Positions 3,733-20,637 of a stretch of 27,298 nt of DNA are shown here, one piece after another. Under the pieces are notes generated by a model that was not told where the DNA came from, did no database searches, and saw nothing but the letters and a program-made list of their open reading frames with translations. Made by a program: the position numbers and the translations under genes. This DNA comes from a virus. Its lineage: Duplodnaviria; Caudoviricetes. Every line of letters starts with the position of its first letter. Position 1 is the stretch's first letter. The stretch is from the IMG/VR virus record IMGVR_UViG_3300030098_001574, positions 1 to 27,298 of that record; one strand, given 5' to 3'.

Positions 3733-3744
3733 TATGATCCTTTC

Positions 3745-4263
3745 TTAAAATGGTTTTTCGTCTAGCTCATCCCAAGTTTTATCTTGATTCATTTCTTTAC
3801 CAAGTGATTGAAGTTTCTTTCTGGTATCCATAGCTTTCTCGTAAGCTGTAATACCATGACCAATCCACTTAGCTATTTCGTCAGCAGTATCTTTGAACTG
3901 CACACCCTTTTCGTGATGTAAATGACAAGCTAGTTCTGTGATACGACCAGCTAATCCAACTGCAATCATTCCGATTTCTTTTTCGGTAGGTTGTGGGGCA
4001 GGTGCAGGTGTTCCCTGCCCACCAGTATCCTCACTGATATCTTTGTCTGGTGCTTCTACCTTGAATGCTGTTGCATTACCATTACGTTCTTGTCCGTAGT
4101 GTACCAATACCTTGTCACCAACTGCTACCTGCGGATCAAACTTACAATAGAACTTAATCTTTGTTCCGCTTTGATCTAGTACAACAGGCATAAACCATTG
4201 ATCTTTGCCTGGTTTAGGTGGTGATAGATAATCTACTGTACCTACTGATTTATTTGTTTCCAT
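3745..4263 (-). CDS. Putative single-stranded DNA-binding protein (OB-fold-like)
   Basis: Start METNK at 4263 with AAGGAG SD; beta-rich N-terminus, Pro/Gly linker, acidic tail WDELDEKPF; next to an exonuclease. Confidence 0.55.
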   Translation of the reverse strand: METNKSVGTVDYLSPPKPGKDQWFMPVVLDQSGTKIKFYCKFDPQVAVGDKVLVHYGQERNGNATAFKVEAPDKDISEDTGGQGTPAPAPQPTEKEIGMIAVGLAGRITELACHLHHEKGVQFKDTADEIAKWIGHGITAYEKAMDTRKKLQSLGKEMNQDKTWDELDEKPF

Positions 4264-5005: not shown

Positions 5006-5034
5006 TTGCTATCCTTTCTCGAATAATTTATATT
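5006..5034 (+). promoter_or_regulatory. Sigma70-like promoter giving a probably leaderless mRNA for 5041
   Basis: TTGCTA(5006-5011)-17 nt-TATATT(5029-5034); +1 would fall at or near the A of ATG 5041, which has no SD. Confidence 0.55.
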
Positions 5035-5040
5035 TTTTAT

Positions 5041-5782: not shown

Positions 5783-5812
5783 TATTCAATAACTTACTAA
5801 TTGTGATATAAT
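5772..5812 (+). promoter_or_regulatory. Promoter upstream of 5832
   Basis: Perfect extended -10 TGaTATAAT (5804-5812); a TTGACA at 5772-5777 is too far from it to be its -35. Confidence 0.5.
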
Positions 5813-5831
5813 TGCAACAGGTGTATCAAAA

Positions 5832-6074
5832 ATGAAACAAAACAAAGACTTAAGTAAATCTGATTCGTATGCAGCTACCTTAGATTTGGACCAACTAACT
5901 CGTACAGTCAAACAAAGTATGAACTGTCCTGAGAAAGTAGCTCGTGCTATCGCTGGTTTAATATCAGCTAAGATTTATCTTGAACTTGTTTGTAAAGAGG
6001 AAGACTATCAAGAGTATCTAGTGGAACTAGAAGAACAACTTGATATGCATGATGAAGAAAAAACTATCCATTGA
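5832..6074 (+). CDS. Hypothetical acidic protein
   Basis: 80-aa ORF with AGGTG SD. Confidence 0.7.
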   Translation: MKQNKDLSKSDSYAATLDLDQLTRTVKQSMNCPEKVARAIAGLISAKIYLELVCKEEDYQEYLVELEEQLDMHDEEKTIH

Positions 6075-6405
6075 TGGCAAGAAAATAAAGGTACATTGTA
6101 CCGATATCACTATTGAACTAAGAGAACCTGAATTTGCTGATGACAATCTGACTGATTGTTATGGACATTTTCTAAAACGTAAGAACCTAATACAAATTAA
6201 CAAGGGTCTATCCGACATTGACGAGGCGAATACTACCTTACATGAACTGATGCATTGCATAGCTTGGTTGACTAACGAAACCAATGAAGGTGCATTAGCT
6301 AACGACACAGCAGAAGAACGAGTAGTCAATAACTTTACCAACTATCTTATTGGTATCTTCCGTGAAAATAAATGGCTGCTTGATTACTTCAAAGAAAAAT
6401 TATAG
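6049..6405 (+). CDS. HExxH zincin-like metallopeptidase-domain protein
   Basis: CYGHF...LIQIN....EANTTLHELMHCI...EERVV; start at ATG 6049 or 6052. Confidence 0.7.
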   Translation: MMKKKLSIDGKKIKVHCTDITIELREPEFADDNLTDCYGHFLKRKNLIQINKGLSDIDEANTTLHELMHCIAWLTNETNEGALANDTAEERVVNNFTNYLIGIFRENKWLLDYFKEKL

Positions 6406-6406
6406 C

Positions 6407-6614
6407 GAGAGAGTGCCTACAGGGGCAGTTTCGTAGATGAGATATCTCTAGACCTATACACTCTCTCCATCCATTGATCATTGGAATATTTTAACAAGGT
6501 GTGGGTACGCCAAAGCCATTAAACCTGCCTCCTAGGAGGATGTACCGAAATGGTTTCGAAGGCGTTAACTGGTCACCTCTATCCGTAGTTGATCTTGTAC
6601 TCGTCAGTACCTAC
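6407..6614. other. Structured convergent intergenic region (three stem-loops)
   Basis: GAGAGAGTG/CACTCTCTC (6407-6467); long irregular hairpin AGGTG/CACCT, ACGCC/GGCGT, AGCCATT/AATGGTT (6497-6578); GTAG..GTACT/AGTAC..CTAC (6585-6614). Confidence 0.65.
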
Positions 6615-6618
6615 AGAA

Positions 6619-7143
6619 TTACTTTTCAGGTAAAGCTATCTTGCTATAACCTAATTGTATATTTGCTTTCTTCTTTAATACATGACCAATAGTCTTGAAC
6701 AACTGTTCAGTCTCAGATCCTGCTGACCATATATAATCTTGAAGCTCTTGATGTACTGTATCAAGATGTAATAAAGCTTCACCCTCTGGTGTTTTATTAA
6801 ACTCTTTCTCAATAACATCTTGTGCTAAAGCCCTTAACTTTCTCTCTACTGCAGCATAATCATTTTCACTATACCAACTAGTCGAATCACCTTGATCTTT
6901 ATACATTTGATTAATAACATCTTGTAGTTGTTCAATCATTGTATGATAATCTTTTTCCAACTGTTTTAGTGTAGCTAACTTCTTATCAAGTTTAACTTTC
7001 TTTAAGAATTCTGGAAATAACTTCTTAGCTTGTGTTGTTTTCTTATCAGCTAATTGTAATTCGAATCCTTGTTTCTCATTACGAACAAGATCATCTACTC
7101 TTTGAAGTAAATACTCTCGTTGTCTCTCTGACATTTTACTCAT
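6619..7143 (-). CDS. Hypothetical coiled-coil protein
   Basis: 174-aa ORF with AGAAAGGA SD. Confidence 0.8.
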   Translation of the reverse strand: MSKMSERQREYLLQRVDDLVRNEKQGFELQLADKKTTQAKKLFPEFLKKVKLDKKLATLKQLEKDYHTMIEQLQDVINQMYKDQGDSTSWYSENDYAAVERKLRALAQDVIEKEFNKTPEGEALLHLDTVHQELQDYIWSAGSETEQLFKTIGHVLKKKANIQLGYSKIALPEK

Positions 7144-7324
7144 TGTTTATCCTTTCTTTCTTTATTGTTTTTATTTCGTCATACTTATCTTGAACTAAGA
7201 TATGTATAACTTTCTTTTTTGTTAGACCAGTATTCAAACAAATGTAATCTAACCAGTCTGTTATCTCCGCATGTTCTTGTGGAGTTACGTTGATGGCAAG
7301 GTATTTCCAACCATCTTTATTCAT
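7136..7324 (-). CDS. Small protein, possibly ribbon-helix-helix-like
   Basis: YLAINVT strand followed by two helices; overlapping starts and stops. Confidence 0.6.
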   Translation of the reverse strand: MNKDGWKYLAINVTPQEHAEITDWLDYICLNTGLTKKKVIHILVQDKYDEIKTIKKERINNE

Positions 7325-7643
7325 TGATAGGTTCTCTATCTACGAGAGCTGCCTTACCAATTATAGTTGGATCCATACTCATTCTTTGTTCTTGATCCAA
7401 CCATTCTTGAAAGTATTTAGTAGCCAATGCGTTATACTCTTGACCACTAAGTCTACCTTCTTCATCAATATACAAATCATAATTCTTATCATTGTATCTT
7501 GCGCCTGTGATCTCAATCATCTCACAAGATAAATGTTTGTACATACCGTTGTCACCTTTAAACTCTGGTCCATCAGTACCTTCAACAATTACATCGTAAG
7601 GATTTTTATCTACAGGTATTATTGTTACTTTAAATTTATTCAT
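7317..7643 (-). CDS. DUF3846-like protein
   Basis: Start MNKFKV at 7643 (GAAAGGA SD); MIEI....DLYIDEEGRL...YN.LAT...IIGKAALV pattern. Confidence 0.7.
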   Translation of the reverse strand: MNKFKVTIIPVDKNPYDVIVEGTDGPEFKGDNGMYKHLSCEMIEITGARYNDKNYDLYIDEEGRLSGQEYNALATKYFQEWLDQEQRMSMDPTIIGKAALVDREPINE

Positions 7644-7661
7644 ATGTTTTCCTTTCATTGG

Positions 7662-7880
7662 TGGGGGAGAGTGAGGTCTAACTGGGTGGTAAGATTCTCT
7701 CCCCCATAAAAGGCGACAGTTGAAGAGGTCGCAACTACTGCCGCCCATTACGGTGACAACTATAAAGAAGGACTAAATAATTGTCACCTATCAAGATGGG
7801 AATAACAAAACCCATCAAGAATATTATATAGATGCAGTGAGAAGATAGCACTCATTAACGGTACTAGGTCTCCCACTGCA
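7662..7880 (-). other. Array of five non-identical stem-loops
   Basis: Stems at 7662-7706, 7712-7745, 7752-7788, 7795-7816 and 7833-7880; A-C oppositions on + read as G-U on -. Confidence 0.7.
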
Positions 7881-7896
7881 CCAACCATGGTATATG

Positions 7897-8142
7897 TTAT
7901 ATGTACTTTGGTTTAGCTACAACACTAAACGCAACTTTAGGATCATCAACATAGTTCTGTGCTTCTTCTTTACTAATCATTTTATTGATTTCAATCATCA
8001 ATGAATTAGTAACTTGAATAGGCATATAACCTTTGATCCCAGAGTGTACAGGTTTACCAGTCGAAGTATCCCATTCATTGACAGGATAAGCTTTGATGTA
8101 AACTTCTTGTTCCATATCTGGATTTATTACTGGATTGCTCAT
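7897..8142 (-). CDS. Hypothetical protein
   Basis: 81 aa with AGAAAGGAG SD. Confidence 0.75.
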   Translation of the reverse strand: MSNPVINPDMEQEVYIKAYPVNEWDTSTGKPVHSGIKGYMPIQVTNSLMIEINKMISKEEAQNYVDDPKVAFSVVAKPKYI

Positions 8143-8160
8143 TGTTTTTCTCCTTTCTTT

Positions 8161-8652
8161 TTATCCTATTTTAAAACCTTGATCTGATTCCTCACAGAAG
8201 TCAGAAAATTCTTTTAACAATTCTAGATCCATTGGATAACTTGCATCAGAATCATATTTTATTTTATGATACATTACCTCCCATATTTCTTTTTCTGGAG
8301 GAGACAAGTCATTACCACAACTTGCACCTTGTTCTGTTGTCCAAGCATCTAATGCTTTCATTAATATTTCTTCTGCTTTAACTTCTTTATTTCTATTTGT
8401 TTCATAGACATCGCACATCTCTTTCAATGTACCATCATCTAATAATGATTGTAATCTGGTAGCTAACATAATACTTTTAGCTCCATCAATCTTTACAAAA
8501 TCATTGTAATTACCACGCTTGATTTCTTCAGCATCAAGTATGTCATCACAAAATTGAGTAACTAGTTTCCAGATAGGTCTCCAACCCCAGACATTAGATC
8601 TGAAGTATGTCTCACCTTTCTGTTTATTTAGTCCATATAAATCGAATCCCAT
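8161..8652 (-). CDS. Conserved phage hypothetical protein
   Basis: Start MGFDLYG at 8652 (GGAGGT SD); YFRSNVWGWRPIW and C-terminal EFSDFCEES..GFKIG. Confidence 0.8.
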   Translation of the reverse strand: MGFDLYGLNKQKGETYFRSNVWGWRPIWKLVTQFCDDILDAEEIKRGNYNDFVKIDGAKSIMLATRLQSLLDDGTLKEMCDVYETNRNKEVKAEEILMKALDAWTTEQGASCGNDLSPPEKEIWEVMYHKIKYDSDASYPMDLELLKEFSDFCEESDQGFKIG

Positions 8653-8752
8653 ATTACCTCCTTTAGAATCCATTGTACCACCAGTCTCTATGAGACCAGA
8701 GGAAGTTATTAATTAAGTAGGCTAGTTGTTGCCATAAGTTTCTACTATAGTT

Positions 8753-8938
8753 TCAGCCAGGCAACAGACTGAATATTGTAAATGCAAATACTCCAAGTCC
8801 TATAAGTCCCCATGGTAATCGTTTATTATTGTTTGCTTCTTTGTGTCGTAACTTAAAGATTACTTCTTCTTGGTCTTTAATTTGTTTGTCACGCCACCTG
8901 ATTTCTTGTTTCCATAATTGTTTTTCTTCTTGATCCAT
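8753..8938 (-). CDS. Small coiled-coil protein with C-terminal TM helix
   Basis: LPWGLIGLGVFAFTIFSLL; AAGGAG SD. Confidence 0.7.
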   Translation of the reverse strand: MDQEEKQLWKQEIRWRDKQIKDQEEVIFKLRHKEANNNKRLPWGLIGLGVFAFTIFSLLPG

Positions 8939-9165
8939 TACTGTATCTCCTTCGTGATTACATTTGTAAACATTCTTTCATCTTGTAATTCAAACTGAAA
9001 CACCAATCTTAATTCTTCTTTTGTAAAGTATTTATTTACAACCGGTATCTCAATTAACCAGTCTATCTCATCTTCTACATCAACAGCTGGTTCTGTATTC
9101 TTTACACGTTGTATTGATTCAGCTATCATTAGTTCAGCATCATCATAATTCAAACTGCTTATCAT
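8938..9165 (-). CDS. Hypothetical acidic protein
   Basis: 75 aa, coupled to neighbours. Confidence 0.7.
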   Translation of the reverse strand: MISSLNYDDAELMIAESIQRVKNTEPAVDVEDEIDWLIEIPVVNKYFTKEELRLVFQFELQDERMFTNVITKEIQ

Positions 9166-9320
9166 TGTTTATCCTTAAACTGTGATTCAAACATTTCAAA
9201 CTCTGATTGATAATCTTGTACTATCAAGTTGATTTTTGCTAGTGCAGCTGTGTATGTAATTTCTTGATCATAGTACCTATCAACAATCAAAGATATCTCA
9301 TCCATCCATTCATTTGGCAT
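9162..9320 (-). CDS. Small acidic protein (52 aa), not in track
   Basis: MPNEWMDEISLIVDRYYDQEITYTAALAKINLIVQDYQSEFEMFESQFKDKQ*; GAGGA SD; ATGA coupling. Confidence 0.65.
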   Translation of the reverse strand: MPNEWMDEISLIVDRYYDQEITYTAALAKINLIVQDYQSEFEMFESQFKDKQ

Positions 9321-9486
9321 TCTCTAGTTCCTCTCTATTTGTTATTGCTTGGTTTCTTAACCTATCAGTATGACCCCAATAACATATGATACATAAGTTA
9401 TTACCATCTTTCTTGATAGGATCCATTATGAAACCAAAGTGTTTAGCTTCTGTCTCCCAGTTGCAATGTCTGCATTTAAGTGTCAT
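9310..9486 (-). CDS. Small Zn-finger protein (58 aa), not in track
   Basis: MTLKCRHC...LCIICYWGH...; AGAAAGGAT SD. Confidence 0.65.
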   Translation of the reverse strand: MTLKCRHCNWETEAKHFGFIMDPIKKDGNNLCIICYWGHTDRLRNQAITNREELENAK

Positions 9487-9498
9487 GACTTATCCTTT

Positions 9499-9726
9499 CT
9501 AGTTTACACTAATAGTATATCTATTAGCCATTGGTTGAGTACCAAACTGTTTGAGCCACCAGTCTATCCACATATCTTCAAGCTGATCTCTCATCATTCT
9601 TGCTTTTTCAAGATCATATGTTTGAGCTACAGGATTCCTGTTACCCTCACATAAGATATAATATACTGGATCTTTCATCCACTTGGTTTGTTTCTTATCA
9701 ACCTTTAACTCAGTTACCTTATTCAT
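9499..9726 (-). CDS. Hypothetical protein
   Basis: 75 aa; overlaps the upstream stop. Confidence 0.65.
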   Translation of the reverse strand: MNKVTELKVDKKQTKWMKDPVYYILCEGNRNPVAQTYDLEKARMMRDQLEDMWIDWWLKQFGTQPMANRYTISVN

Positions 9727-9919
9727 CTGTAAACTTTCTGTGTTGATTTATTAAATTGTCTAATGCTAATTTAACAAGTTCACTTTTTTTACAGTTAAGT
9801 TCTCTTGCTATCTCTACTAACTTAGCATTCGTTTGTTTAGTTATACCTATCGAATGCCAGTTAGATACTGGTTTTTTTTCGATATTACTATCTATTAATT
9901 TTTCAAAGTCTATCTTCAT
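9719..9919 (-). CDS. Ribbon-helix-helix (CopG/Arc-like) DNA-binding protein
   Basis: HSIGITKQTNAKLVEIARELNCKKSELVKLALDNL. Confidence 0.7.
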   Translation of the reverse strand: MKIDFEKLIDSNIEKKPVSNWHSIGITKQTNAKLVEIARELNCKKSELVKLALDNLINQHRKFTDE

Positions 9920-9922
9920 CGC

Positions 9923-10150
9923 TCACTCCATGTTTTCGTTCGCTCTACCATAATGTCCTAATAGTAGTTTAGCTTTGTTAATAAATTGATTTGCAGTTTT
10001 ACTATCACCAATGTCTATCATATGCTGCGCATCAGATAGTATTGCCATGATATATAGATAGCGAAACTTACCATACATTTCTCCAGCTTCAGCATATGCT
10101 CTGTAGATTTGTTGTTTAGTTTCACCATACATTTCTTTTTGTGAAGTCAT
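9923..10150 (-). CDS. Hypothetical protein
   Basis: 75 aa with GAAAGGA SD. Confidence 0.75.
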   Translation of the reverse strand: MTSQKEMYGETKQQIYRAYAEAGEMYGKFRYLYIMAILSDAQHMIDIGDSKTANQFINKAKLLLGHYGRANENME

Positions 10151-10171
10151 ATTATTCCTTTCATTAATTAA

Positions 10172-10219
10172 GTATGGGTAGGATTTAAACCTTCTTCTAT
10201 TTCCAGTATCCTACCCACA
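10172..10219 (-). other. Intergenic stem-loop (possible processing or stability element)
   Basis: TGGGTAGGAT/ATCCTACCCA perfect 10-bp stem with a 23-nt loop; flanking pair is G-U on the minus strand. Confidence 0.65.
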
Positions 10220-10224
10220 CCTAT

Positions 10225-10482
10225 TTATTTTATGGTTTCAGAAGTTAATGTCACGCTTCCTTGATGGAAGTTTTCATTAACTGTAGACCATATAGCTACA
10301 TCCAACACTCTACCTTCACTATCAGTTATATATCCTGATAGCATTGGAGCGTTTTCATTTTCAGATTGTACTGACCAAAGAACTATCTTGTTCTCCTCTG
10401 TCGGTACATACTGATTAGTCGTTTGCTCTGCATAAGCACAACTGCCTATCAACATTGCAAACATAACAACTATAGTCTTCAT
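10225..10482 (-). CDS. Signal-peptide protein with a DUF736-like mature region
   Basis: MKTIVVMFAMLIGSCAYA|EQ; NENAPMLSGYI...LDVAIWS. Confidence 0.7.
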   Translation of the reverse strand: MKTIVVMFAMLIGSCAYAEQTTNQYVPTEENKIVLWSVQSENENAPMLSGYITDSEGRVLDVAIWSTVNENFHQGSVTLTSETIK

Positions 10483-10504
10483 AGATCTATCCTTTCTGTT
10501 GTTG

Positions 10505-10657
10505 TTAATCTTTTACAATCTTAGTGTGTATCTCATCAATCTGTAATCTTAACACATCTATCTCAGATGCACACCAATTAGATTCACTAAACTCATATTG
10601 TATATACAAGTTAACTAGCATTGTTATTGCTATTACTACGAGAATCAAATGATTCAT
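10505..10657 (-). CDS. Small membrane-anchored protein (50 aa), not in track
   Basis: MNHLILVVIAITMLVNLYIQYEFSESNWCASEIDVLRLQIDEIHTKIVKD*. Confidence 0.6.
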   Translation of the reverse strand: MNHLILVVIAITMLVNLYIQYEFSESNWCASEIDVLRLQIDEIHTKIVKD

Positions 10658-10994
10658 AAATCTTATCATAATCATATCCCATTATTGCTTCACAAAAGAA
10701 TAGATTTGCTTTGTCTGTATCGTCATCAACAATACAATCCCATGTGAAGATTTCCTTTCTATCATGTAAAAGAATGTAAGAGTCATCAAACTCCCAGACT
10801 TCCCAACCATTCTCTTGGATTATTAATTGTTCCATTCCTATTGTATTACATAGCACTGCTTGATCTGGATCCACTATGTTATCGCAGTTGTATCCTATCC
10901 AACCTGGACCAGCATAATGTTCTGACTCTGCGTATGCTATCTTCTCCAATCCCATTAGCATTAGTATTGAAGTTATTATTATCATTGCTTTCAT
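10611..10994 (-). CDS. Exported acidic Cys-containing protein
   Basis: Signal-like N-terminus ending IAYA|ES; four Cys; D/E-rich. Confidence 0.7.
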   Translation of the reverse strand: MKAMIIITSILMLMGLEKIAYAESEHYAGPGWIGYNCDNIVDPDQAVLCNTIGMEQLIIQENGWEVWEFDDSYILLHDRKEIFTWDCIVDDDTDKANLFFCEAIMGYDYDKIYESFDSRSNSNNNAS

Positions 10995-11008
10995 ATGTTT
11001 CCTTTCTG

Positions 11009-11350
11009 TTAGTAATGACAGTTAGACCAATCAGGTACACACTTACTATTTAGTTTATATAAGTTACAATCAACAAAGCCATTGTTCATAGTACCAACTA
11101 ATGTTGTTATAATACCATGATCTACTAAGGCTTGTTCAATACCTTCATTCTCTGACCAATTCTTTACTGCCATTAAAGGTATTGTTGGATCTATATCTAC
11201 ATTGGCTGATGCTTCCATATATGCCAAACCTTCATCATCATACAATCGTAATGATATAAGATTTGTATCTTTATATCTACCAAATTCACAATGTAATCTT
11301 TCTCCTTGAAACATTATATCATGTTCCATATATTCTATTTGTGCTTTCAT
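11009..11350 (-). CDS. DUF4313-like protein
   Basis: GRY..TNLISLRL....AYMEASAN...VKNWSENEGIEQALVDHGII....NGFV pattern; AAGGAGG SD. Confidence 0.65.
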   Translation of the reverse strand: MKAQIEYMEHDIMFQGERLHCEFGRYKDTNLISLRLYDDEGLAYMEASANVDIDPTIPLMAVKNWSENEGIEQALVDHGIITTLVGTMNNGFVDCNLYKLNSKCVPDWSNCHY

Positions 11351-11386
11351 ATATCCTCCTTATTCTGCACTCTATCTTTTACCCCC

Positions 11387-11409
11387 TCGGCGAGGCGAAG
11401 CCGAGCCGA
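11387..11409 (+). other. GC-rich hairpin with GAA triloop and tandem G-A mismatch
   Basis: CGGC-GA-GGC-GAA-GCC-GA-GCCG (11388-11408). Confidence 0.65.
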
Positions 11410-11450
11410 ATTTTGTTCTGGGTTTGTTCTGTTTTTATTTTCGCATATAG

Positions 11451-11485
11451 AAAAAAACCCCCAAGTCCAGAAGGACTCAGGGGTT
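11451..11485 (-). terminator. Rho-independent terminator
   Basis: Minus strand AACCCCTGAGTCC-TTCT-GGACTTGGGGG followed by seven T, 13 nt after the stop at 11499. Confidence 0.9.
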
Positions 11486-11498
11486 AATTTATGTTTTG

Positions 11499-11993
11499 TT
11501 ATTTATCTAAAGAGATTGGTTTCAAACCTTGAGCTTGACGAAGTTTATTGAACTCTTCAACAGAAAGCTCACGCTTAGCTGAATTGTCCAAATCTTTCCA
11601 ATCAATTCGATAACCTGAAGCTGTAATGCAAGTAGGAAATGCATTAGCATAAGCTTCAAGAGTCTCAGCAATTACTGTGAATTTAGCTTCATTCTCAGTG
11701 TGCCAAGTCGCAGAACCAGATTTCTTATAGTTCTCGATAGCCAACTTCTGAGACTCATGTGCCTTTTGTTTATAAGAATCAATCTTAGAATCCAAGGTTC
11801 TCACCACAGCAGTAGTAATGTTGTTAGCAAGATATACCCATTCAGATAAATCTTCCTTACAAGACTTACTTTTCAATGCCTTCTTAAAGGATTCCTCAAT
11901 TTTATCTAATGCATCAATTAAGAGTTGAGAGTTAGAAACAATCTCAATTTCTAAGTCTGATACAGATAGTTTATTGTTATTTTTATTACTCAT
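11499..11993 (-). CDS. First gene of the minus-strand block, hypothetical helical protein
   Basis: Start MSNKN at 11993 with GAAAGGA SD; has its own terminator. Confidence 0.8.
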   Translation of the reverse strand: MSNKNNNKLSVSDLEIEIVSNSQLLIDALDKIEESFKKALKSKSCKEDLSEWVYLANNITTAVVRTLDSKIDSYKQKAHESQKLAIENYKKSGSATWHTENEAKFTVIAETLEAYANAFPTCITASGYRIDWKDLDNSAKRELSVEEFNKLRQAQGLKPISLDK

Positions 11994-12028
11994 GATTAAT
12001 TTTCCTTTCAATGAGTTGATTTAAGAAA

Positions 12029-12850
12029 TACGATAAATTGTAATAATTAAATATAATAATTAAAAAATATCGTAACCATTTCAAAGTACACACCTCAGCG
12101 TTTGCGTAGGGAATCTTTTAGGATTAGCTCACATCAAGTAAAAAGAAATGTGAGTAATCCGTATGAATCGTTTACGATTCGTTAAAGATGACTGAAGCAA
12201 ACCAGTCACACAGTCCTGCTTAGACTGTGGGAACTCGAAGGGTCGAAAAAATCGAGGCACTTGTGCCGAGAAAAGAGATGCAATCCTTGCGAGGTGATGT
12301 ACAATGGTTATCGATATAAGCCCCACGCAGTGGCTTCGAACACCCATGAGGGGTCGTTGCACTTCATATCGCATGTACGATGGGGCAAGTTGTCTGCACC
12401 TTTAGGTGCGACCACTTGATACCATTGTGCGAGACTGAAGTTTTCGCAACGACTGTGATGCAGAAAGTATGATAGGAACATCACTGTCGATTATTGGGCC
12501 TTTCAAATCACCATAAAGAATGGGTGCGACAGCACCTCCGTAAGGAAAGATGCCAACCAACCTATTGAATATATATTGTTACGATTAAGAAGACGGAGTA
12601 GGTTAAGAACAAGTGAAGCATTCGTCACGCTTAGTCGAATGCGTAACGGTACACGAAGTGTATGTTCGTACATACGTAGTCGTAAAGTCGCCGATAGGCG
12701 TTCGTCCCACTACGTGGGAGAGAAGAGAAGAAGAGAAAAGAGAACGAAAACAAGAGAGTAATTCAAGACGGAAGGGGGTGCATGGGGGATTCCCCCTGCT
12801 AGGTCTGGGCAAAGCCCAGCCGACTGCAGTTCGGAGACTGCCTTGAAGTG
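12029..12850 (+). other. Large non-coding multi-hairpin element (structured ssDNA or ncRNA)
   Basis: GC-enriched, no credible ORF, more than 15 stems including long-range pairing of 12067-12096 with 12291-12317. Confidence 0.75.
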
Positions 12851-12874
12851 AGGAACACGTATGGTTGCTGCGAA

Positions 12875-13010
12875 GGGGGGTTTTTAGAAAACGATAGGGT
12901 GATAACAAAATGTATGGGGTCTAAGAGACAAGGGGGGGTTTGTTAAAACAAAGTCGTACTTGACACATATACACTAATGAGAATATATTGAAACGGTGGG
13001 GGGTTTGTTA
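12875..13010 (+). repeat. Three GGGGGGTTT(G)TTA direct repeats
   Basis: 12875-12886, 12933-12945 and 12998-13010; the last two are identical 13-mers. Confidence 0.7.
12960..12989 (+). promoter_or_regulatory. Sigma70-like promoter of the packaging/structural operon
   Basis: TTGACA(12960-12965)-18 nt-TATATT(12984-12989). Confidence 0.6.
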
Positions 13011-13035
13011 CGATCCTTTCTGTACCTCCCACGTT
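12992..13035 (+). other. Leader stem-loop with anti-SD loop
   Basis: GTGGGGGGT/ACCTCCCAC stem (one G-U); loop TTGTTACGATCCTTTCTGT. Confidence 0.65.
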
Positions 13036-13151
13036 AATCTATCATATTTACAAATTCTGAAGGGTTTGGTGTTTTAGAGTACCCTACCATTCAAATATCA
13101 ATCAACTAGCCTAAATCGAGAGATATGGGCATTTAACAAGGAGAATAAACT

Positions 13152-13253
13152 ATGCCAATGGTAAAAGGTAAGAAGTATCCATATACAAAAAAAGGTATGG
13201 CTGCTGCAAAGAAAGCTAAGAAGAAAATGAAAAGTAAAAAGGGTATGAAGTAG
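13152..13253 (+). CDS. Lys-rich micro-protein (33 aa), not in track
   Basis: AAGGAG SD; MPMVKGKKYPYTKKGMAAAKKAKKKMKSKKGMK*. Confidence 0.75.
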   Translation: MPMVKGKKYPYTKKGMAAAKKAKKKMKSKKGMK

Positions 13254-13393
13254 TGGCATCGCCAAAACCTAAGAATAAAGCCCTATACGCTAGAGTAAAG
13301 GCAGAAGCAAAGAAGAAGTTCAAGGTATATCCTAGTGCTTATGCTAACGCATGGCTTGTCAAAACGTACAAGAAACGTGGTGGCAAGTACTAA
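13253..13393 (+). CDS. Basic protein, DUF5872-like N-terminal half (46 aa), not in track
   Basis: GTG start; PKNKALYARVKAEAKKKFKVYPSAYANAWLVKTYKKRGGKY*. Confidence 0.75.
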   Translation: MASPKPKNKALYARVKAEAKKKFKVYPSAYANAWLVKTYKKRGGKY

Positions 13394-13629
13394 TGGCATA
13401 CAAGGGTGGACTACGCAAGTGGTTCAAAGAGGATTGGCGTGACGTCAAGACTGGAAAAAAATGTGGTCGCAGCGGAAAGAAAGACAAGGGCAGACCTTAT
13501 CCTGCATGTCGACCAAAGAAAGTAGCTAGTCGTATATCGAAGAGCGAAGCATCAAAGAAGACTGGACCCAAAAGAGTTAAGTGGTCTGTCACAGCATCTG
13601 GTAAAAGGAGAAAGAAATCAAATGGCTAA
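13393..13629 (+). CDS. Basic protein, DUF5872-like C-terminal half
   Basis: Start MAYKGGLRKWFKEDW at 13393 (TAATG); CGRS...YPACRP. Confidence 0.75.
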   Translation: MAYKGGLRKWFKEDWRDVKTGKKCGRSGKKDKGRPYPACRPKKVASRISKSEASKKTGPKRVKWSVTASGKRRKKSNG

Positions 13630-13888
13630 GTCACCTGCATGGCAAAGAAAAGAAGGTAAGAACCCAAGTGGGGGTTTGAATGCTAAAGGTCGTGCTAGTT
13701 ATAACAGAGGAAGAACTAAGACAGGGAAGAAGCGTAACCTGAAAGCACCAAGCAAAAAGGTAGGCAACCCAAGACGAGCATCCTTCTGCGCCAGAATGAA
13801 AGGAATGAAAAAGAAACTAACGAGTGCAAAGACAGCTCGTGATCCAAACTCTCGTATTAATAAATCATTGAGAGCATGGAATTGTTAA
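13622..13888 (+). CDS. Basic phage protein (DUF6321-like)
   Basis: AWQRKEGKNPSGGLNAKGRASY...RRASFCARM...SRINKSLRAWNC. Confidence 0.75.
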   Translation: MAKSPAWQRKEGKNPSGGLNAKGRASYNRGRTKTGKKRNLKAPSKKVGNPRRASFCARMKGMKKKLTSAKTARDPNSRINKSLRAWNC

Positions 13889-13897
13889 GGAGATATT

Positions 13898-14557
13898 ATG
13901 GTTAAATATAACAAAGATTTTCAAGATGTACCGTCAGCATTGACGTTCTTAACGTCAGACGGTGTAACAGGAGCAAACATACTCAACGGTAAGATTAATG
14001 CATCTGGATCTAAATTTGATAAGATGGATGCAACAGAAAGCAATCTAATGAAAGCTATGGACACTACAGGGTATGATCTGCCTAAGACAAACATTAATGA
14101 TTATAAAAAGGTAGCATCTAATGAGCCATCATGGTCAGATTATTTATTAGGTAGGTTTGGATTTAGACAAGGTACTGGTTTTTCTACTATGGATAGATAT
14201 AGATCTCTTTATGAAAGAAGAAACTCTTTGAAAGGAAAAGAAAAAGAAGAATTTATTAAATTAGATAATTTGTTAAAAACTAGTAGTGGTCCTAAAATTA
14301 GAAACAAGAAAACACAGGAACAACCGAACTATGGAGATATGATTCCTAGAATACCAGAAGGTTATAAAGAACCTACTCCTATGAAAAAAGAAAATATTCC
14401 ATTTAATCCAATCTTTAGACCAGGCATGGATCCAATGGGTTTACCTAATAGAAGACCTAACATGATGCCAAACAATATGGTACAGAATAGAGGCAACAAT
14501 AAAACACTTGTAAAACTTGCTACAGTAAATAGATTATTTCCAGGATTAATATCATGA
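13898..14557 (+). CDS. Hypothetical protein with Pro/Met/Asn-rich C-terminus
   Basis: 219 aa with AAGGAG SD. Confidence 0.8.
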   Translation: MVKYNKDFQDVPSALTFLTSDGVTGANILNGKINASGSKFDKMDATESNLMKAMDTTGYDLPKTNINDYKKVASNEPSWSDYLLGRFGFRQGTGFSTMDRYRSLYERRNSLKGKEKEEFIKLDNLLKTSSGPKIRNKKTQEQPNYGDMIPRIPEGYKEPTPMKKENIPFNPIFRPGMDPMGLPNRRPNMMPNNMVQNRGNNKTLVKLATVNRLFPGLIS

Positions 14558-14838
14558 GTCATGGAGGAAAAAGAAAAGGTGCAGGAAGACCAAAAGGAAT
14601 TCAAGCAGGTACAAAAGCAGAACGCTTAGCTGCTGAACTAGGTAAAGGTCAGACCACACCATTGAAGTATATGTTGAATATGTTGAACAACCCACAAGTA
14701 TCTATTGAAAAAAAGATGTGGGCAGCAAAAGAAGCTGCACCGTTTGTTCATTCTAAACTTGCATCAATTAATAAAACTATTATGGGTGATGAAGATAAAC
14801 CAGTTGCAGTAACCATAGGATGGCGTAAAAAGAAATAA
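14554..14838 (+). CDS. terS: Putative terminase small subunit
   Basis: GGKRKGAGRPKG N-terminus, AAKEAAPFVHSKL; directly upstream of TerL. Confidence 0.65.
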   Translation: MSHGGKRKGAGRPKGIQAGTKAERLAAELGKGQTTPLKYMLNMLNNPQVSIEKKMWAAKEAAPFVHSKLASINKTIMGDEDKPVAVTIGWRKKK

Positions 14839-16097
14839 TGAACATAGAGATTCCGTACGAACCTCGACCATTACAAGAAAAGATTCATAACGAATTAAAA
14901 CGATTCAATGTTTTAGTTTGTCATAGAAGGTTTGGCAAAACAGTATTAGCAGTAAATCATTTGATAATGACTTGCTGTGAAAAACCTAATGCAAGATTGG
15001 CGTATATAGCACCAACATATCGCCAGGGTAAGGCAGTCGCTTACGACTATTTGAAACAATACACAGAACCCTTAATGAAACTTGGTGGCAAACGTCATGA
15101 AACAGAACTCAAAGTAGATCTGTGGAACGGATCAAGATTACAAATCTTTGGAGCTGATAACCCAGATGCTTTGAGGGGATTAGGCTTTGATGGAGTTGTC
15201 TTAGATGAATTTGCTTTGATGTCTCCTAGAACTTGGACTGAGGTTGTACGACCAGCTATATCAGATAAACTTGGATATGTTATATTTATTGGAACACCAA
15301 TGGGTCATAATCATTTCTGGGAAGTATATGATCTAGCTAAAAGGCGTGGTGGAGAATGGTACGCTGAATTATACAGAGCTTCTGAGACTGAAGTTATATC
15401 TCAAGAAGAACTTGAAGAAGCTGCTGCTACTATGCCAGAAGATCAATTTGAACAAGAGTTTGAAGTTAGTTTCCAAGCTGCAGTATCAGGTGCATACTTT
15501 GGAAAACAAATACAGAAAGCTGAAAGAGAAAATAGAATAACTGATGTTGACTATGATCCTAACAATGAAGTTGAAACATGGTGGGATTTAGGTATCGGTG
15601 ATTCTACAGCAATATGGTTTGCACAAAGAGCAGGTAATGAAATACACCTGATTGATTATTTAGAAACGTCTGGTGAATCATTAGCTTACTACATAGGGCA
15701 GCTAAAAGAAAAAGGTTATAACTACGGTAGGCATATTGCACCACACGATATTACAACTAGAGAACTTGGTACAGGTAAATCTAGATTAGAAGTAGCAAGG
15801 GAACTTGGAATTGACTTTGAAGTTTGTCCTAGATTAGAAATAGATCATGGTATAGAAGCTGTGAGAAATAATTTAGACAAATGTTATTTTGATAAGAACA
15901 GATGTAAATATGGTATTGATTGTTTGCGACAGTACCGAAAACAATTTGATGACAGAATGCAAACATTTAAAAACAAACCTCTACATGATTGGGCATCACA
16001 CGGAGCTGATGCATTTCGTTATGGATGTTCTGTTGATGGTTCAACAAGAACTGATTGGGAAAGACCAATGAGTGTAGATATAAGATATGTAGTTTAA
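14838..16097 (+). CDS. terL: Terminase large subunit
   Basis: Walker A HRRFGKT, Walker B VVLDE, IGTPMG, nuclease motifs WDLG and HGADAFRY. Confidence 0.95.
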   Translation: MNIEIPYEPRPLQEKIHNELKRFNVLVCHRRFGKTVLAVNHLIMTCCEKPNARLAYIAPTYRQGKAVAYDYLKQYTEPLMKLGGKRHETELKVDLWNGSRLQIFGADNPDALRGLGFDGVVLDEFALMSPRTWTEVVRPAISDKLGYVIFIGTPMGHNHFWEVYDLAKRRGGEWYAELYRASETEVISQEELEEAAATMPEDQFEQEFEVSFQAAVSGAYFGKQIQKAERENRITDVDYDPNNEVETWWDLGIGDSTAIWFAQRAGNEIHLIDYLETSGESLAYYIGQLKEKGYNYGRHIAPHDITTRELGTGKSRLEVARELGIDFEVCPRLEIDHGIEAVRNNLDKCYFDKNRCKYGIDCLRQYRKQFDDRMQTFKNKPLHDWASHGADAFRYGCSVDGSTRTDWERPMSVDIRYVV

Positions 16098-16105
16098 GGA
16101 ATATT

Positions 16106-18358
16106 ATGGCAAAAGGAAGACCGTTAACGGATCACGAAATACAGGGAATAGTAGCTAGTGAACTAAGAAGTGCATTTGGTTATTATGAAACTGATTTAGT
16201 AAACTCAAGAAAGAAAGCTACTGAATATTATTTCGGTGAATCATTTGGCAATGAAGTAGAAGGAAGATCACAAGTTGTTTCAACTGATGTTGCTGATACA
16301 GTAGAATCAATACTACCTGCTTTACTTAGAATATTTACTGCTAGTGATAATATTGTAAAAGTAGATCCAGTTACTCAAGAAGATGTAGGTGTAGCCAAAC
16401 AAGCTAGTGATTATCTAAATCATATATTCAATAAAGATAATGATGGGTTCACTACATTGTATGCAATGTTTAAAGATGCACTGCTGCATAAAAATGGAAT
16501 AGTAAAAGTTTATTGGGATACATCAGAAAGAACAAAACAAGAAACTTATGAAAAACTTTCTGAAGCTGAATTCACAATGCTTGTTGAAGAAGATGGTGTA
16601 GAAGTAAAAGAACATACTGAGTACAACGATGAAACATTTGAAGAACAGAAAAAGAACATACAAGAACAATTAGATAATGCTCAAGATCAAGTATCTGCAA
16701 ATCTTATGGAGCAACAACTAAATGAAATAAATACTCCAAAGTTACATGATGTAGTTATTATTCGTACAGAAACATTTGGTAAAGTAAAAATGGAAGCTGT
16801 ACCACCTGAAGAATTTTTAATTGAAAGACGAGCAAAGAATTTAGAAGAGGCAAACTTCTTATGTCATAGAACTACAAAGACAAGAAGTGAATTAGTTGAA
16901 ATGGGTTTTGATTATGACCTTGTTTATTCTTTACCAAAAGAACACGATCAAAGTTATAATGAAGAAAAGACTGTAAGACATAGAAACATTGATAACGATC
17001 TTAGCAATGAAACTGGAGATGAATCTACAGATGAAATAGTAATCTGTGAATCCTATATTAAAATGGATCAAGATGGTGACGGTATTGCAGAGATGAGAAA
17101 GATAACTTCATCTGGTGATGATAGCTATACAATACTTGATAATGTTGTTGTAGATGCACAACCTTTCTGTTCTGTTACTCCAATCGTAGTACCACATAGA
17201 TTCTATGGTAGGTCAGTATCAGAATTAGTAGAAGATATTCAATTAATTAAATCTACTGTTATGCGTCAGATACTAGACAATATGTATCTAACTAATAATA
17301 ACAGAGTAGCTGTAATGGATGGTCAAGTTAATCTAGAAGATCTATTAACTAATCGCCCAGGCGGAGTTGTAAGAACTAAAGCAGCTCCAGGACAAGTTAT
17401 GATGCCAATGACTACTCAAACAATTAACAATCAAGCATTTCCACTACTTGAATATTTAGATACTGTTAAAGAAAACAGAAGCGGTATTACTAAATACAAT
17501 CAAGGTATGGATACTGATTCTCTTAATAAAACTGCATCAGGTATAAATACTATTCTTTCACAATCACAAATGAGAATAGAATTGATTGCAAGAATATTTG
17601 CTGAGACTGGTGTTAAAGATTTATTCAAGAAGATATTTGAATTAGTTGTAAAATATCAAGATAAAGAACGTATAGTTAAAATTAGAAATAACTTTGTACC
17701 AATGAATCCTATGGAGTGGAGAGATCGTTGTAATGTAAGTATTCAAGTTGGTTTAGGAACTGGATCAAGAGATCAACAGTTATCTATTTTAAATCAAATC
17801 TTAAGACAACAAATAGATGGTATAAGATTACAAGGTTCACCACATGGACCAATAGTAAATATGAATAATATTTATAATACATTGAAAAAGATTGTAGAGA
17901 ATGCAGGTCTTAAAGATGTTGATTCTTACTTTACTGATCCTATAGTTGGTATGCGTCAAATGCCGCCAAGAGGACAGAAACCTCCAACAGAATTTGAAAC
18001 TGTATCAAGAATACAAACGCAGCAGAAAGCAGCTGAAGCTCAGATGCAATATGAAAATAGAATGCGTGAGATTGAACTTAGATATCAGAAGATGATGTTA
18101 GACTTCGAAGGTAAAGTAAAAGAACTAGAATTGAAATACGAAGCAGATATTGATGAGAAAGCAATTAAGAGAGAAGCATTGAAAATGAAAGGTATTTCAG
18201 AAAGCAATAAACAAATGCTTGACGCTGCAACTAAAAATCTGTTACAACCTGAAGGTATACCAAAAGGACTAACACCACAACCAAAACAAGGTAGCGATAC
18301 CTTTATAGAAATAGATGTCGGATCTGATAAAGGAACAAACAAGGGGCCAAAGGGCTAA
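16106..18358 (+). CDS. Portal protein
   Basis: Follows TerL; EGRSQVVS.DV.DTVE, DALL.KNG.VKVYW, PH.FYGRS, C-terminal coiled coil; start MAKGR at 16106. Confidence 0.9.
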   Translation: MAKGRPLTDHEIQGIVASELRSAFGYYETDLVNSRKKATEYYFGESFGNEVEGRSQVVSTDVADTVESILPALLRIFTASDNIVKVDPVTQEDVGVAKQASDYLNHIFNKDNDGFTTLYAMFKDALLHKNGIVKVYWDTSERTKQETYEKLSEAEFTMLVEEDGVEVKEHTEYNDETFEEQKKNIQEQLDNAQDQVSANLMEQQLNEINTPKLHDVVIIRTETFGKVKMEAVPPEEFLIERRAKNLEEANFLCHRTTKTRSELVEMGFDYDLVYSLPKEHDQSYNEEKTVRHRNIDNDLSNETGDESTDEIVICESYIKMDQDGDGIAEMRKITSSGDDSYTILDNVVVDAQPFCSVTPIVVPHRFYGRSVSELVEDIQLIKSTVMRQILDNMYLTNNNRVAVMDGQVNLEDLLTNRPGGVVRTKAAPGQVMMPMTTQTINNQAFPLLEYLDTVKENRSGITKYNQGMDTDSLNKTASGINTILSQSQMRIELIARIFAETGVKDLFKKIFELVVKYQDKERIVKIRNNFVPMNPMEWRDRCNVSIQVGLGTGSRDQQLSILNQILRQQIDGIRLQGSPHGPIVNMNNIYNTLKKIVENAGLKDVDSYFTDPIVGMRQMPPRGQKPPTEFETVSRIQTQQKAAEAQMQYENRMREIELRYQKMMLDFEGKVKELELKYEADIDEKAIKREALKMKGISESNKQMLDAATKNLLQPEGIPKGLTPQPKQGSDTFIEIDVGSDKGTNKGPKG

Positions 18359-18578
18359 AGATATTCTAGAGGATGAACTCTTTAAAGAGTCTTTACAGAC
18401 TTTGAAAGATTCATATTCTAATGCGATATTTCAAACAGGACCAAATGATGAACTGGCAAGGACAAAGATCTACCTTGCTTATCAAATTTTAGGTAAGTTT
18501 GAAAATCATTTCCGTTCCGTTATGGAAACAGGAATACTTGCTAGTAAACAATTAGAAGAGCTACGCAAGAAAAAATAG
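18315..18578 (+). CDS. Conserved small protein between portal and scaffold
   Basis: RGQRAKDILEDELFKE...RTKIYLAYQ...ETGILA pattern. Confidence 0.75.
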   Translation: MSDLIKEQTRGQRAKDILEDELFKESLQTLKDSYSNAIFQTGPNDELARTKIYLAYQILGKFENHFRSVMETGILASKQLEELRKKK

Positions 18579-18632
18579 CACCAACCGTTCAGGAGTGCTT
18601 TTAACAACACCAACCAAACAAAGGAGTGTATT

Positions 18633-19622
18633 ATGGCTGATGAAGCTATGAATGTTCTCGATGCTAGTAAAACTATTGTAGGTCTTATGAACAATAGTGC
18701 AACTGAATCAGAACCAACTAATGAAGCAGCACCTCAAGAATCTAATGAGGCACCTGCAGAAGAAACTGTAAACCCTAGCGATGTACCTTATGCGGACATT
18801 GAAAGAGATGCAGATGCAACTACAGAAACTGTAGAAGCACAAGATGAGGCTCAAGAAGATATTCAAAATGAAAGTTCAGAGGAACCTACCTACCAAGTCA
18901 AAGTACAAGGTCAAACAATGGAGGTCACCCTTGATGAACTACTTCAGGGATACCAACGAGAAGCTGATTATACAAGAAGTAAACAAGATTTATCCTTAGA
19001 GAAATCAAGGCTTGATCAAACACTTCAAAGATCTCAATCTGAGATAAATCAAAAACTCGCTAAGCTGAATGATTTAAACTCTGCAGCACAGGCGCAACTG
19101 CAACAAGAGTATGCAAATATAGACTTTGAAAGACTGTACGAAGACGATCCTGTTGAAGCTAGTAAACTAGAACACAAGATGCGTAAGAGAGCAGATAACC
19201 TTCAAAGGATTCATTACGAAACTCAACAAGCTCAACAACAAGAACTTGCTAGATTCGTACAAGACGAACAATCTAAAATGCTTACACTCATACCAGAATT
19301 TAATGACCCTAATAAAGCTAGTGCATTAAGAAATGATATGAAAGGCTATCTACAAAGACAAGGCTTTAAAGATCAAGAGATAAATAGTATCTATGATTCA
19401 AGACAAGTTATGTTGATTAGAGATGCTTTAGCATACGATAAGATTAGACGTGCAAATCCAAAGGTTAAAAAGAAAGTCGTTAATGCTCCTAAAGTAGTTA
19501 AGTCTGGCACACCTAAAACTGCTGCAGAACAAAATGCACAGCTTAGAAAAGACAAACTAAATCGTCTCAAAAAATCTGGTGGCGTAAGAGATGCTGCCAA
19601 AGTTTTTAGAGATTTTCTTTAA
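18633..19622 (+). CDS. Capsid scaffolding protein
   Basis: Acidic N-terminus, VKVQG...VTLDELLQGY...DYTRSKQ, basic C-terminus; precedes the MCP. Confidence 0.85.
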   Translation: MADEAMNVLDASKTIVGLMNNSATESEPTNEAAPQESNEAPAEETVNPSDVPYADIERDADATTETVEAQDEAQEDIQNESSEEPTYQVKVQGQTMEVTLDELLQGYQREADYTRSKQDLSLEKSRLDQTLQRSQSEINQKLAKLNDLNSAAQAQLQQEYANIDFERLYEDDPVEASKLEHKMRKRADNLQRIHYETQQAQQQELARFVQDEQSKMLTLIPEFNDPNKASALRNDMKGYLQRQGFKDQEINSIYDSRQVMLIRDALAYDKIRRANPKVKKKVVNAPKVVKSGTPKTAAEQNAQLRKDKLNRLKKSGGVRDAAKVFRDFL

Positions 19623-19638
19623 TTAATAGGAGGCCCAA

Positions 19639-20586
19639 ATGGCACAACCAAGTAACTTGTACGATACGTACGACACTACTGGTATTAGGGAAGATTTAGT
19701 AGATGTGATTTATAACATATCTCCTGAAGAAACCCCTATACTGTCAGCGATTCCAAGAACCGCTGCAAAATCTACGAAGCATGAATGGCAACTAGATGCA
19801 TTGGCTGCACCTGCTGCAAACGCAGTTATCGAAGGTGACGATGCAACTATTGATGCTATGACTGCTACAACTAGAGCATTTAACTTTACTCAGATTTCTG
19901 ACAAAGTGATTGCACTTTCTGGAACTCAATCAGCTGTTGACGCTGCTGGTAGAGCTGATGAAATGGCTTATCAAATTGCTAAGAAGTCTAAAGAGTTAAA
20001 GAAAGATATGGAATTTGCCCTTATCAAAGGACAGGTTCAAGCTGCTGGTGATGCATCAAACGCTAGAAAATTAGGATCAATCCCTACATGGATTAAAACT
20101 AATGGTGATGCAGGATCTGGTGGAGCTTTATCTACTGGCTCTGGTACAGACTTACCTAACTCTGGTACTGACAGAGACCTTACTGAAACAATTCTTAAAA
20201 CAGTTGTTAAAGAGGTTTATGAGTCAGGCGGAGAAATGGATATGTTAGTTGTTCCACCATCTGTGAAACAAACTATATCTGGTTTCAACGCTAATACTAC
20301 TAGATTTGGACAAGCAGAAGCTAAAGTTGAGTATGCAGCTATTGATGTTTACTCATCAGACTTTGGTGATTTGCAAGTTGTTCCAAACAGAGTTATGGCA
20401 ACAACAAGTGAAAGCAATGCATTCTTACTACAAAGAGACATGGCTGCAGTAGCTTACCTAAGAGACTTTTCAGTAACTGATCTTGCAAAGACTGGTGACT
20501 CTGAGAAGAAACAACTCTTAGCTGAGTACACACTTGAAATGAGAAACGAAGCCGCACACGGTATTCTTCTCGACATCAACCAATAA
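19639..20586 (+). CDS. Major capsid protein (DUF5309/SU10-like)
   Basis: GIREDL.DVIYNISPEETP, HEWQ.D.L, NFTQI, ELKKDMEFALI, LAKTGD, EYTLE; AGGAGG SD. Confidence 0.92.
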   Translation: MAQPSNLYDTYDTTGIREDLVDVIYNISPEETPILSAIPRTAAKSTKHEWQLDALAAPAANAVIEGDDATIDAMTATTRAFNFTQISDKVIALSGTQSAVDAAGRADEMAYQIAKKSKELKKDMEFALIKGQVQAAGDASNARKLGSIPTWIKTNGDAGSGGALSTGSGTDLPNSGTDRDLTETILKTVVKEVYESGGEMDMLVVPPSVKQTISGFNANTTRFGQAEAKVEYAAIDVYSSDFGDLQVVPNRVMATTSESNAFLLQRDMAAVAYLRDFSVTDLAKTGDSEKKQLLAEYTLEMRNEAAHGILLDINQ

Positions 20587-20593
20587 TCTAAGT

Positions 20594-20616
20594 GAGGGAG
20601 CTTCGGCTCCCTCTTT
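20594..20616 (+). terminator. Hairpin / leaky terminator after the MCP
   Basis: GAGGGAGC-TTCG-GCTCCCTC (cUUCGg loop) followed by only TTT. Confidence 0.75.
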
Positions 20617-20637
20617 AGAATCATTCTAAGGAACATT

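Follow-up and report, generated by a model that had tools for sequence, protein, structure and literature searches.

The locus and its gene blocks

The window, by which the whole analysed stretch of 27,298 nucleotides is meant, is a 27.3-kb virus record of approximately 71% completeness, with a GC content mostly between 32% and 39%. Its minus-strand block (2919-11993) holds small genes, mostly without known function, and its plus-strand block, from 13152, holds terminase, portal, scaffold and capsid genes (Table 1); 'early' and 'late' are used below as labels by gene position rather than by expression. Four small Lys-rich ORFs (13152-13888) open the virion operon; two adjacent ones match different parts of the DUF5872 model and another corresponds to DUF6321, a gene that proved a poor anchor for finding relatives. 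The nearest cultured phage to the window is Pelagibacter phage HTVC106P (TerL 50%, capsid 47%), and the host group, as distinct from any individual host, is likely SAR11.

Upstream of the virion operon lies a sigma-70-type promoter that is the best consensus match between 5000 and 14500 and agrees with the consensus at 11 of 12 positions. Judging from promoter spacing, transcription is predicted to start at approximately 12995-12996. The stem of a hairpin begins 6 nt after the promoter, and transcription is therefore predicted to open with this hairpin; its 5' arm is a G-run, and the stem extends to 12 bp over 12992-13035. The initial annotation of this DNA had placed a promoter directly 5' of a 9-bp stem, and both elements were confirmed at the positions given in Table 1. 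No terminator-like site was detected 3' of the hairpin.

Table 1. Positions of the promoter, leader elements, virion operon head and predicted Shine-Dalgarno (SD) targets in the window
Feature	Position	Strand	Remarks
Upstream GGGGGGTT run copies	12875..12945 (starts 12875, 12933)	+	third copy (12998) is the hairpin 5' arm
Sigma-70-type promoter	12960..12989	+	TTGACA 12960-12965, 18-nt spacer, TATATT 12984-12989
5'-terminal RNA hairpin (predicted)	12996..13032	+	9-bp stem 12996-13004/13024-13032
Open loop, 19 nt	13005..13023	+	predicted fold
Anti-SD seed UCCUUUCU	13014..13021	+	equals last 8 letters of 16S gene in six SAR11-related genomes
Second, weak predicted hairpin	13058..13093	+	leader; only in sub-lineage with long leader; not terminator-like
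Virion operon head	13152..16097	+	small basic ORFs (DUF5872, DUF6321), then terminase subunits
Terminase small subunit	14554-14838	+	in virion operon head
Terminase large subunit (TerL)	14838-16097	+	in virion operon head
Predicted target: AGAAAGGA SD of gene 3409-3732	3738..3745	-	best loop duplex, -16.8 kcal/mol
Predicted target: SD of gene 4277-5005	5012..5019	-	gene with weak Cas4-like/nuclease PHROG match
Predicted target: SD of gene 6619-7143	7150..7157	-	loop complementarity
Predicted target: SD of gene 7317-7643	7650..7656	-	loop complementarity
Predicted target: SD of gene 7897-8142	8151..8158	-	loop complementarity
Predicted target: SD of gene 9310-9486	9493..9500	-	loop complementarity
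Predicted target: SD of gene 9923-10150	10156..10162	-	loop complementarity
Predicted target: SD of gene 10225-10482	10489..10499	-	perfect 11-bp match
Predicted target: SD of gene 10611-10994	11000..11009	-	loop complementarity
Predicted target: SD of first minus-strand gene 11499-11993	12003..12009	-	loop complementarity

The loop motif is predicted to be single-stranded (mean unpaired probability 0.69-0.97), and TCCTTTC would be expected by chance 0.03 times in the whole 1.14-kb spacer. Taken alone, the hairpin folds modestly better than shuffled sequences (z -2.1), and the case for it therefore rests on conservation. RNA data comprise one metatranscriptome run, in which 7% of the words are present and whose contigs, which cannot show transcript ends, do not lie over the hairpin; this proves nothing. 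A search centred on a Pelagibacteraceae single-cell genome covered 21 genomes; the 16S end is present in six of them, and all six read ...CACCTCCTTTCTA. The loop word corresponds to the distal 8 letters of this end and not to the CCUCC core, the comparison being with the gene sequence rather than with the mature RNA end.

Conservation of the hairpin in two phage clades

Relatives of the window were chosen by TerL in a motif-blind manner, giving 44 loci, 16 of them with enough upstream DNA to include the promoter. Promoter, G-run arm, TCCTTTC in the loop and C-rich 3' arm are present together in 15 of these 16; in the exception (L103) the hairpin is shorter and the motif is missing. The loop, whose presence in related phages the initial annotation had named as a point to check, is kept in these 15 TerL-picked loci with variable length and flanks. 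TTGAC and ATA(T/C)T are likewise retained in relatives with the same spacing. Further clade members came from a promoter-plus-G-run scan and from motif scans, which are not motif-blind; TCCTTTC is present in 12 of 13 distinct clade hairpins, and loop length ranges from approximately 10 to 24 nt. Loose pattern scans yielded mostly unrelated matches, with the promoter in 1 of 118 metagenome matches, and a CCTTTC-loop hairpin was among the strong anti-SD loops in none of 24 distant low-GC terminase loci.

Among the 13 distinct hairpins, the 3' arm differs only by C-to-U changes at four positions, which keep G-U pairs, and by one A-C at the outermost pair. Double stem changes do not occur in this clade because the G-run is fixed. 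The late strand outfolds the opposite strand in 17/17 hairpins. G-U exceeds A-C in the stems by 47 to 1, a ratio that is biased by the stem finder and is given no weight. The element has been lost at least twice (L103; L531/L746).

Whether or not they carry the hairpin, relatives have G-runs of the form GGGGGGTT ahead of the virion operon, frequently two or three of them, and the last one precedes the first late gene in L540, L548, L551, L570, L576, L590 and others. Given its presence in hairpin-less relatives, the G-run is probably an older, DNA-level signal, possibly for packaging or protein binding. The G-run in L548, L553 and L554 leads into an ATCC(C/T)T arm akin to the present loop, which may be the source of today's loop, and the loops of L087 and L088 hold an antisense SD plus ATG. 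The element might on these grounds, and on that of its repeated loss, be non-functional as RNA, combining a packaging or origin signal in the DNA (the G-runs) with a leftover antisense copy of an early ribosome-binding site (RBS) or an old pairing arm. Such an origin without RNA function is very unlikely, as it does not account for the G-U-preserving changes, the strand asymmetry, the fixation of the motif while the surrounding loop varies, or the recurrence of the same loop word on unrelated, covarying and G-run-free stems in the clade of HTVC106P.

Some relatives differ in the layout of this region. The first late gene lies within a few bases of the predicted start in L531 (205-235), L740-L749, L556, L750 and L770, where the hairpin is missing, and these mRNAs look nearly leaderless. 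A single locus, L569, has a hairpin approximately 2670 nt before TerL with the loop word ACCUCCU (core anti-SD), and the UCCUUUC hairpin is missing.

In HTVC106P, a 13-bp stem unrelated in sequence to that of the window bears a 25-nt loop with UCCUUUCU, 24 nt before the terminase small subunit gene. The clade set comprised 53 loci in which TerL shares at least 78% identity with that of HTVC106P and at least 1150 nt of upstream sequence is available; among the large-loop hairpins lying no more than 2.2 kb from TerL, the strongest was chosen motif-blind. CCTTTC lies in the loop of 38 of 44 distinct strongest hairpins and of 8 of 186 others. Of the six misses, four carry a motif hairpin at lower rank, L402 and L420 being the remaining two. 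Stem pairs interchange among G-C, C-G, A-U, U-A and G-U, with three to four distinct Watson-Crick pair types at each of pairs 2-7. The 31 hairpins of this clade include 23 distinct 5' arms and compensatory stem changes, whereas the window clade shows one-sided G-U changes only. The stems contain no G-run, the late strand outfolds the opposite strand in 35/38, and an upstream TTGA word is found in 37/38 leaders. No match to the HTVC106P leader was detected in other isolates of the phage collection. Two further features were observed in these leaders, namely a weaker upstream CU-loop module (CUCCCU or CCCUUU loop) in 37/38, and a perfect 8-12-bp palindrome of variable sequence directly 5' of the main stem in 38/38 distinct leaders (approximately 36069-36084 in L361, which is HTVC106P, and in the same place in L363-L441).

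The TerL tree places the window's hairpin group amid hairpin-less relatives and the HTVC106P group separately. This placement suggests that two independent origins of the hairpin are likely, with weak tree support inside the group and mosaic phage genomes. The structured leader with an anti-SD loop is real and conserved, and its occurrence in both clades probably reflects convergence.

The same geometry bears on a cis-acting role. As a 5' leader, the hairpin could protect the late mRNA against decay from its 5' end through its stem, and could use its pyrimidine-rich loop to bind a host factor for ribosome loading at the SD-less first gene or at the terminase small subunit gene. Ribosomal protein bS1 would be an example of such a factor. 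The hairpin is located at the predicted +1; the ATG follows it by 5-25 nt in the HTVC106P clade, where an SD-like word precedes the ATG in only 8/38, and many window-clade members have an SD-less ATG approximately 5-10 nt after the hairpin. However, many close relatives have the same first gene with neither hairpin nor SD, the distance to the first ATG varies from 5 to approximately 120 nt, the exact 7-mer is retained rather than just any U/C-rich stretch, and the division of SD types between early and late genes would be left unexplained. A cis-acting leader is on this evidence unlikely, albeit a serious candidate. No conserved cis partner was found for the loop, GAAAGGA being mostly absent downstream of the hairpin. 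A cis pseudoknot with a downstream SD was also considered and rejected, with AGAAAGG located 3' of the stem only in L393/L395 and L398/L399.

Shine-Dalgarno usage and loop complementarity

In the window, TCCTTTCT occurs in nine copies on the plus strand and none on the minus strand. There are 11 other TCCTTTC sites on the plus strand, ten of which are separated by 5-9 nt from a minus-strand ATG that opens an ORF of 58-242 aa; the exception, at 10753, stands ahead of a mere five codons. The complementarities that the initial annotation had reported between the loop and minus-strand SD regions were all reproduced, with matches of 11/11 at 10489, 10/10 at 11000, 13/14 at 3732, 9/9 at 5011, 7149 and 9492, 8/8 at 8151, and 7/7 at 7650, 10156 and 12003. 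Its statement that virion genes use other SDs is equally borne out, these being of AAGGAG, AGGAGG and AAAGGA types and none GAAAGG. The loop-RBS duplex averages -10.9 kcal/mol at 22 minus-strand starts and -6.5 at 33 plus-strand starts (p 1.5e-5), and the homologue of gene 10225-10482 is a top-three predicted target in most clade relatives. The loop motif was rejected as the RBS of a minus-strand gene: as already recognized in the annotation, no minus-strand ATG follows it in the window, and L087 and L088 are the only aligned relatives that have one.

SD classes were also counted by gene block in related phages. The ORF caller picks the start that pairs best with the 16S tail, which may inflate SD counts on both sides; block boundaries were set by hand and starts were de-replicated. 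Pooled over loci that are related and hence not independent, GAAAGG SDs were found at 56/127 early and 0/79 late starts in the window clade (14 loci), at 38/148 early and 2/68 late starts in the HTVC106P clade (19 loci), and at 17/121 early and 3/118 late starts in hairpin-less relatives (12 loci), whose early genes favour AGGAG/GGAGG (52/121). By deposited annotation, HTVC106P has this SD at 4/23 early and 0/47 late genes, and the hairpin-less phage Greip at 0/13 early genes. Avoidance of GAAAGG inside late coding sequence was considered separately and gave no consistent signal, with observed/expected values of 0.81 (window clade), 0.58 (hairpin-less) and 0.28 (HTVC106P clade).

The GAAAGG share is 38-77% in 12 of 12 hairpin-bearing window-clade loci with at least six early genes, compared with 8-12% in the three nearest hairpin-less loci. 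Several hairpin-less loci are nevertheless GAAAGG-rich (L103 8/17, L746 7/13, L789 8/21, L590 5/13). The pattern is one-way: every scorable hairpin-bearing genome of the window clade is GAAAGG-rich in its early genes, but GAAAGG-rich genomes do not all have the hairpin. An independent set of 59 loci (49 distinct leaders, 13 with hairpin), drawn from 80 sharing a downstream gene, gave GAAAGG counts of 26/64 with the hairpin and 34/189 without it among genomes with at least six early genes (p 0.07 per genome, 4 vs 13 genomes). The median GAAAGG share in the HTVC106P clade is 0.17, which is not clearly above that of hairpin-less genomes (p 0.07).

The initial annotation had also suggested that host genes with this SD would be silenced, a suggestion that is not upheld. 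A 300-kb portion of a SAR11-related genome, roughly a quarter of the whole, has GAAAGG SDs at only 2 of 278 ORF starts, and host-gene silencing was rejected as a main role on this count; any targets are therefore phage genes. Either SD class is rare in this genome (L607-L621, G017; 8 and 2 of 278 ORFs), unlike in phage early genes.

Co-variation between loop and early SDs, a check proposed with the original observation, gave a divided result. Cognate pairing is favoured between clades (p 0.005-0.02), a signal confounded by lineage because hairpin-less relatives show the same preference; within clades, loops do not pair significantly better with the RBSs of their own genome (8 and 12-13 hand-picked genomes, p 0.12-0.66). 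Lineage-specific long matches in L087 (-22.6) and L424/L433 (-21.6) are suggestive only. It also counts against a switch acting on early genes that the SD class is the plain complement of the 16S tail, a match that needs no RNA regulator.

Identity of the loop word with the 16S gene end, a conserved core 7-mer and flanks that do not track targets within clades would equally be expected of a protein decoy, in which the loop would imitate the 3' tail of 16S and capture a ribosomal or phage protein that normally holds this tail, with no mRNA pairing. A decoy leaves the avoidance of the GAAAGG SD by late genes unexplained, and no candidate protein was found; it is the least probable of the explanations considered.

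Predicted action of the leader and known systems

Dozens of related marine phages carry a predicted hairpin at the start of the virion transcript with a loop word that equals the 16S gene end. Trans pairing best fits the combination of a one-way pattern, an exact word on exchangeable stems, the lack of any conserved partner in cis and a variable distance to the following gene. The explanation favoured here, with a probability of approximately 0.45, is that the leader presents an anti-SD loop like those of Cuckoo and RsaE, and that this loop acts in trans on early mRNAs of the phage itself. RNA would be made from approximately 12995, the virion-operon mRNA would carry the hairpin at its 5' end, and the hairpin's open loop would pair in trans with the AGAAAGGA RBSs of presumed early genes. 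Pairing would block ribosome loading at early genes and would spare the virion genes, which use AGGAG; this scheme presumes that the minus-strand genes are early and that the promoter fires late. Loop pairing of 7-11 bp would presumably suffice without Hfq, with a few targets pairing over 13-17 nt with one or two breaks; no Hfq was found in five SAR11-related genomes, the completeness of which is not known. The leader may act while still part of the full-length mRNA, or after cleavage as a 5' fragment shielded by its stem. The RNA-based early-to-late switch first put forward for this locus is consistent with a loop that is conserved, predicted to be unpaired, encoded by the late strand and complementary to an early SD class avoided by late genes in two clades; its host-silencing component finds no support.

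The promoter conforms to an ordinary sigma-70 consensus and could be active as soon as infection begins, which counts against a switch confined to late stages. The same pairing could in that case cap or tune early output throughout infection or in dormancy. No late activator was identified in the window, where ORF 5041-5532 has a sub-threshold DUF6456 match only; StxS is a late-promoter leader made constitutively that acts as an sRNA (PMC7547250), and part of the HTVC106P-type phages have been suggested to be temperate (bioRxiv 2019.12.14.876532). However, with no terminator after the hairpin, constant firing would express the virion genes too, and neither an integrase nor a clear repressor was found in the 71%-complete record; no prophage carrying the window's TerL was found in the genome contigs searched. 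Pairing with such altered timing appears quite unlikely.

A broader proposal, held more tentatively than the trans-acting leader itself, is that SAR11-type podoviruses split the host's anti-SD sequence into two codes, with early genes using the distal tail (AGAAAGGA) and virion genes the core (AGGAG); the hairpin of the late mRNA would copy the distal tail and shut off the early code without a protein, having arisen at least twice on unrelated stems. If true, small phages without a recognised RNA polymerase would time their cycle by a 40-nt RNA and two RBS classes, in a host group in which Hfq was not found, as a protein-free counterpart of T4 RegB. It would also explain the sorting of SD types by gene block in these genomes. 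The element is carried by a cultured phage, HTVC106P, and is therefore open to testing now; the pair of loop and SD is a potential compact tool for shutting off one RBS class.

Several described regulators resemble this predicted mode of action. The Cuckoo family (RSs0680/CcsR, alpha-r14; RF02344) occurs in Rhodobacteraceae and Rhizobiales, and shares with the present element freely varying stems, a fixed anti-SD loop word and an alphaproteobacterial setting (PMC4615179). Leaders of the HTVC106P clade resemble it further in having two CU loops, though with different words. Cuckoo RNAs differ in their loop motif (CCUCCUCCC, compared with UCCUUUCU of the distal 16S tail in loops with UCCUUUC(U) here), in bearing two to four adjacent motif hairpins where the window has one, and in being free host sRNAs rather than a phage mRNA leader. 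The Cuckoo Rfam model gave no match at E<=5 in 11300-13300 and, in six related loci, none that reached the gathering score.

In Staphylococcus aureus, RsaE and the UCCC-loop sRNAs block initiation through unpaired C-rich loops, and they are expressed independently of Hfq (PMC2790875). Both systems have an unpaired pyrimidine motif, here a predicted one, that is complementary to RBSs on several mRNAs; mRNAs with the complementary RBS are enriched as a class in the present case (56/127 early vs 0/79 late vs 2/278 host). RsaE has another motif, belongs to another phylum and, like its relatives, is a stand-alone host sRNA with host targets that has been tested experimentally, whereas the present case is a prediction from sequence.

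The T4 endoribonuclease RegB is a protein made early that cuts GGAG with S1 as co-factor (PMC3014915). Inactivation of early mRNAs at a common SD motif, with late ones spared, is predicted here as well; the predicted effector is RNA, however, and selectivity would come from two SD classes. No RegB-like family was detected in 57 ORFs (PHROGs) or 19 window ORFs (Pfam), many ORFs having no family and the record being 71% complete. For StxS, an sRNA that arises from PR', the late promoter of lambdoid phages, early termination, RNase E and Hfq are required, and rpoS and stx1 are its targets (PMC7547250). Like the leader as predicted here, it is a regulatory RNA that originates at the 5' end of a late phage transcript; the present locus differs in having no terminator and other predicted targets, and in the lack of Hfq in the five SAR11-related genomes.

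No description of this leader element was found in the published work consulted. A table in PMC10690425 (Fremin et al. 2023) includes candidates with Pelagibacter as host, a name that occurs 85 times in it, so the element may already be listed there without a name of its own.

Other predicted structures lie outside the leader. A strong intrinsic-terminator-like site on the minus strand (11456-11485) lies directly 3' of the first minus-strand gene, and an AT-rich 21-nt inverted repeat (12029-12074), in a region that folds strongly on both strands (z about -4), lies just 5' of it. Parts of the non-coding, GC-rich block at 12200-12700 fold favourably (z down to -3.5), and the block could represent a structured RNA in its own right; it has no Rfam match and a full-length match only in locus L081 (89%). 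Two segments of it (12225-12366 and 12427-12593) match two short contigs of a single metatranscriptome (depth 2), and these are the sole close metatranscriptome matches within 7300-27298. A large-looped, G/C-rich stem on the minus strand (7657-7706) is located just 5' of the SD of gene 7317-7643, and this SD itself pairs further upstream in the predicted fold.
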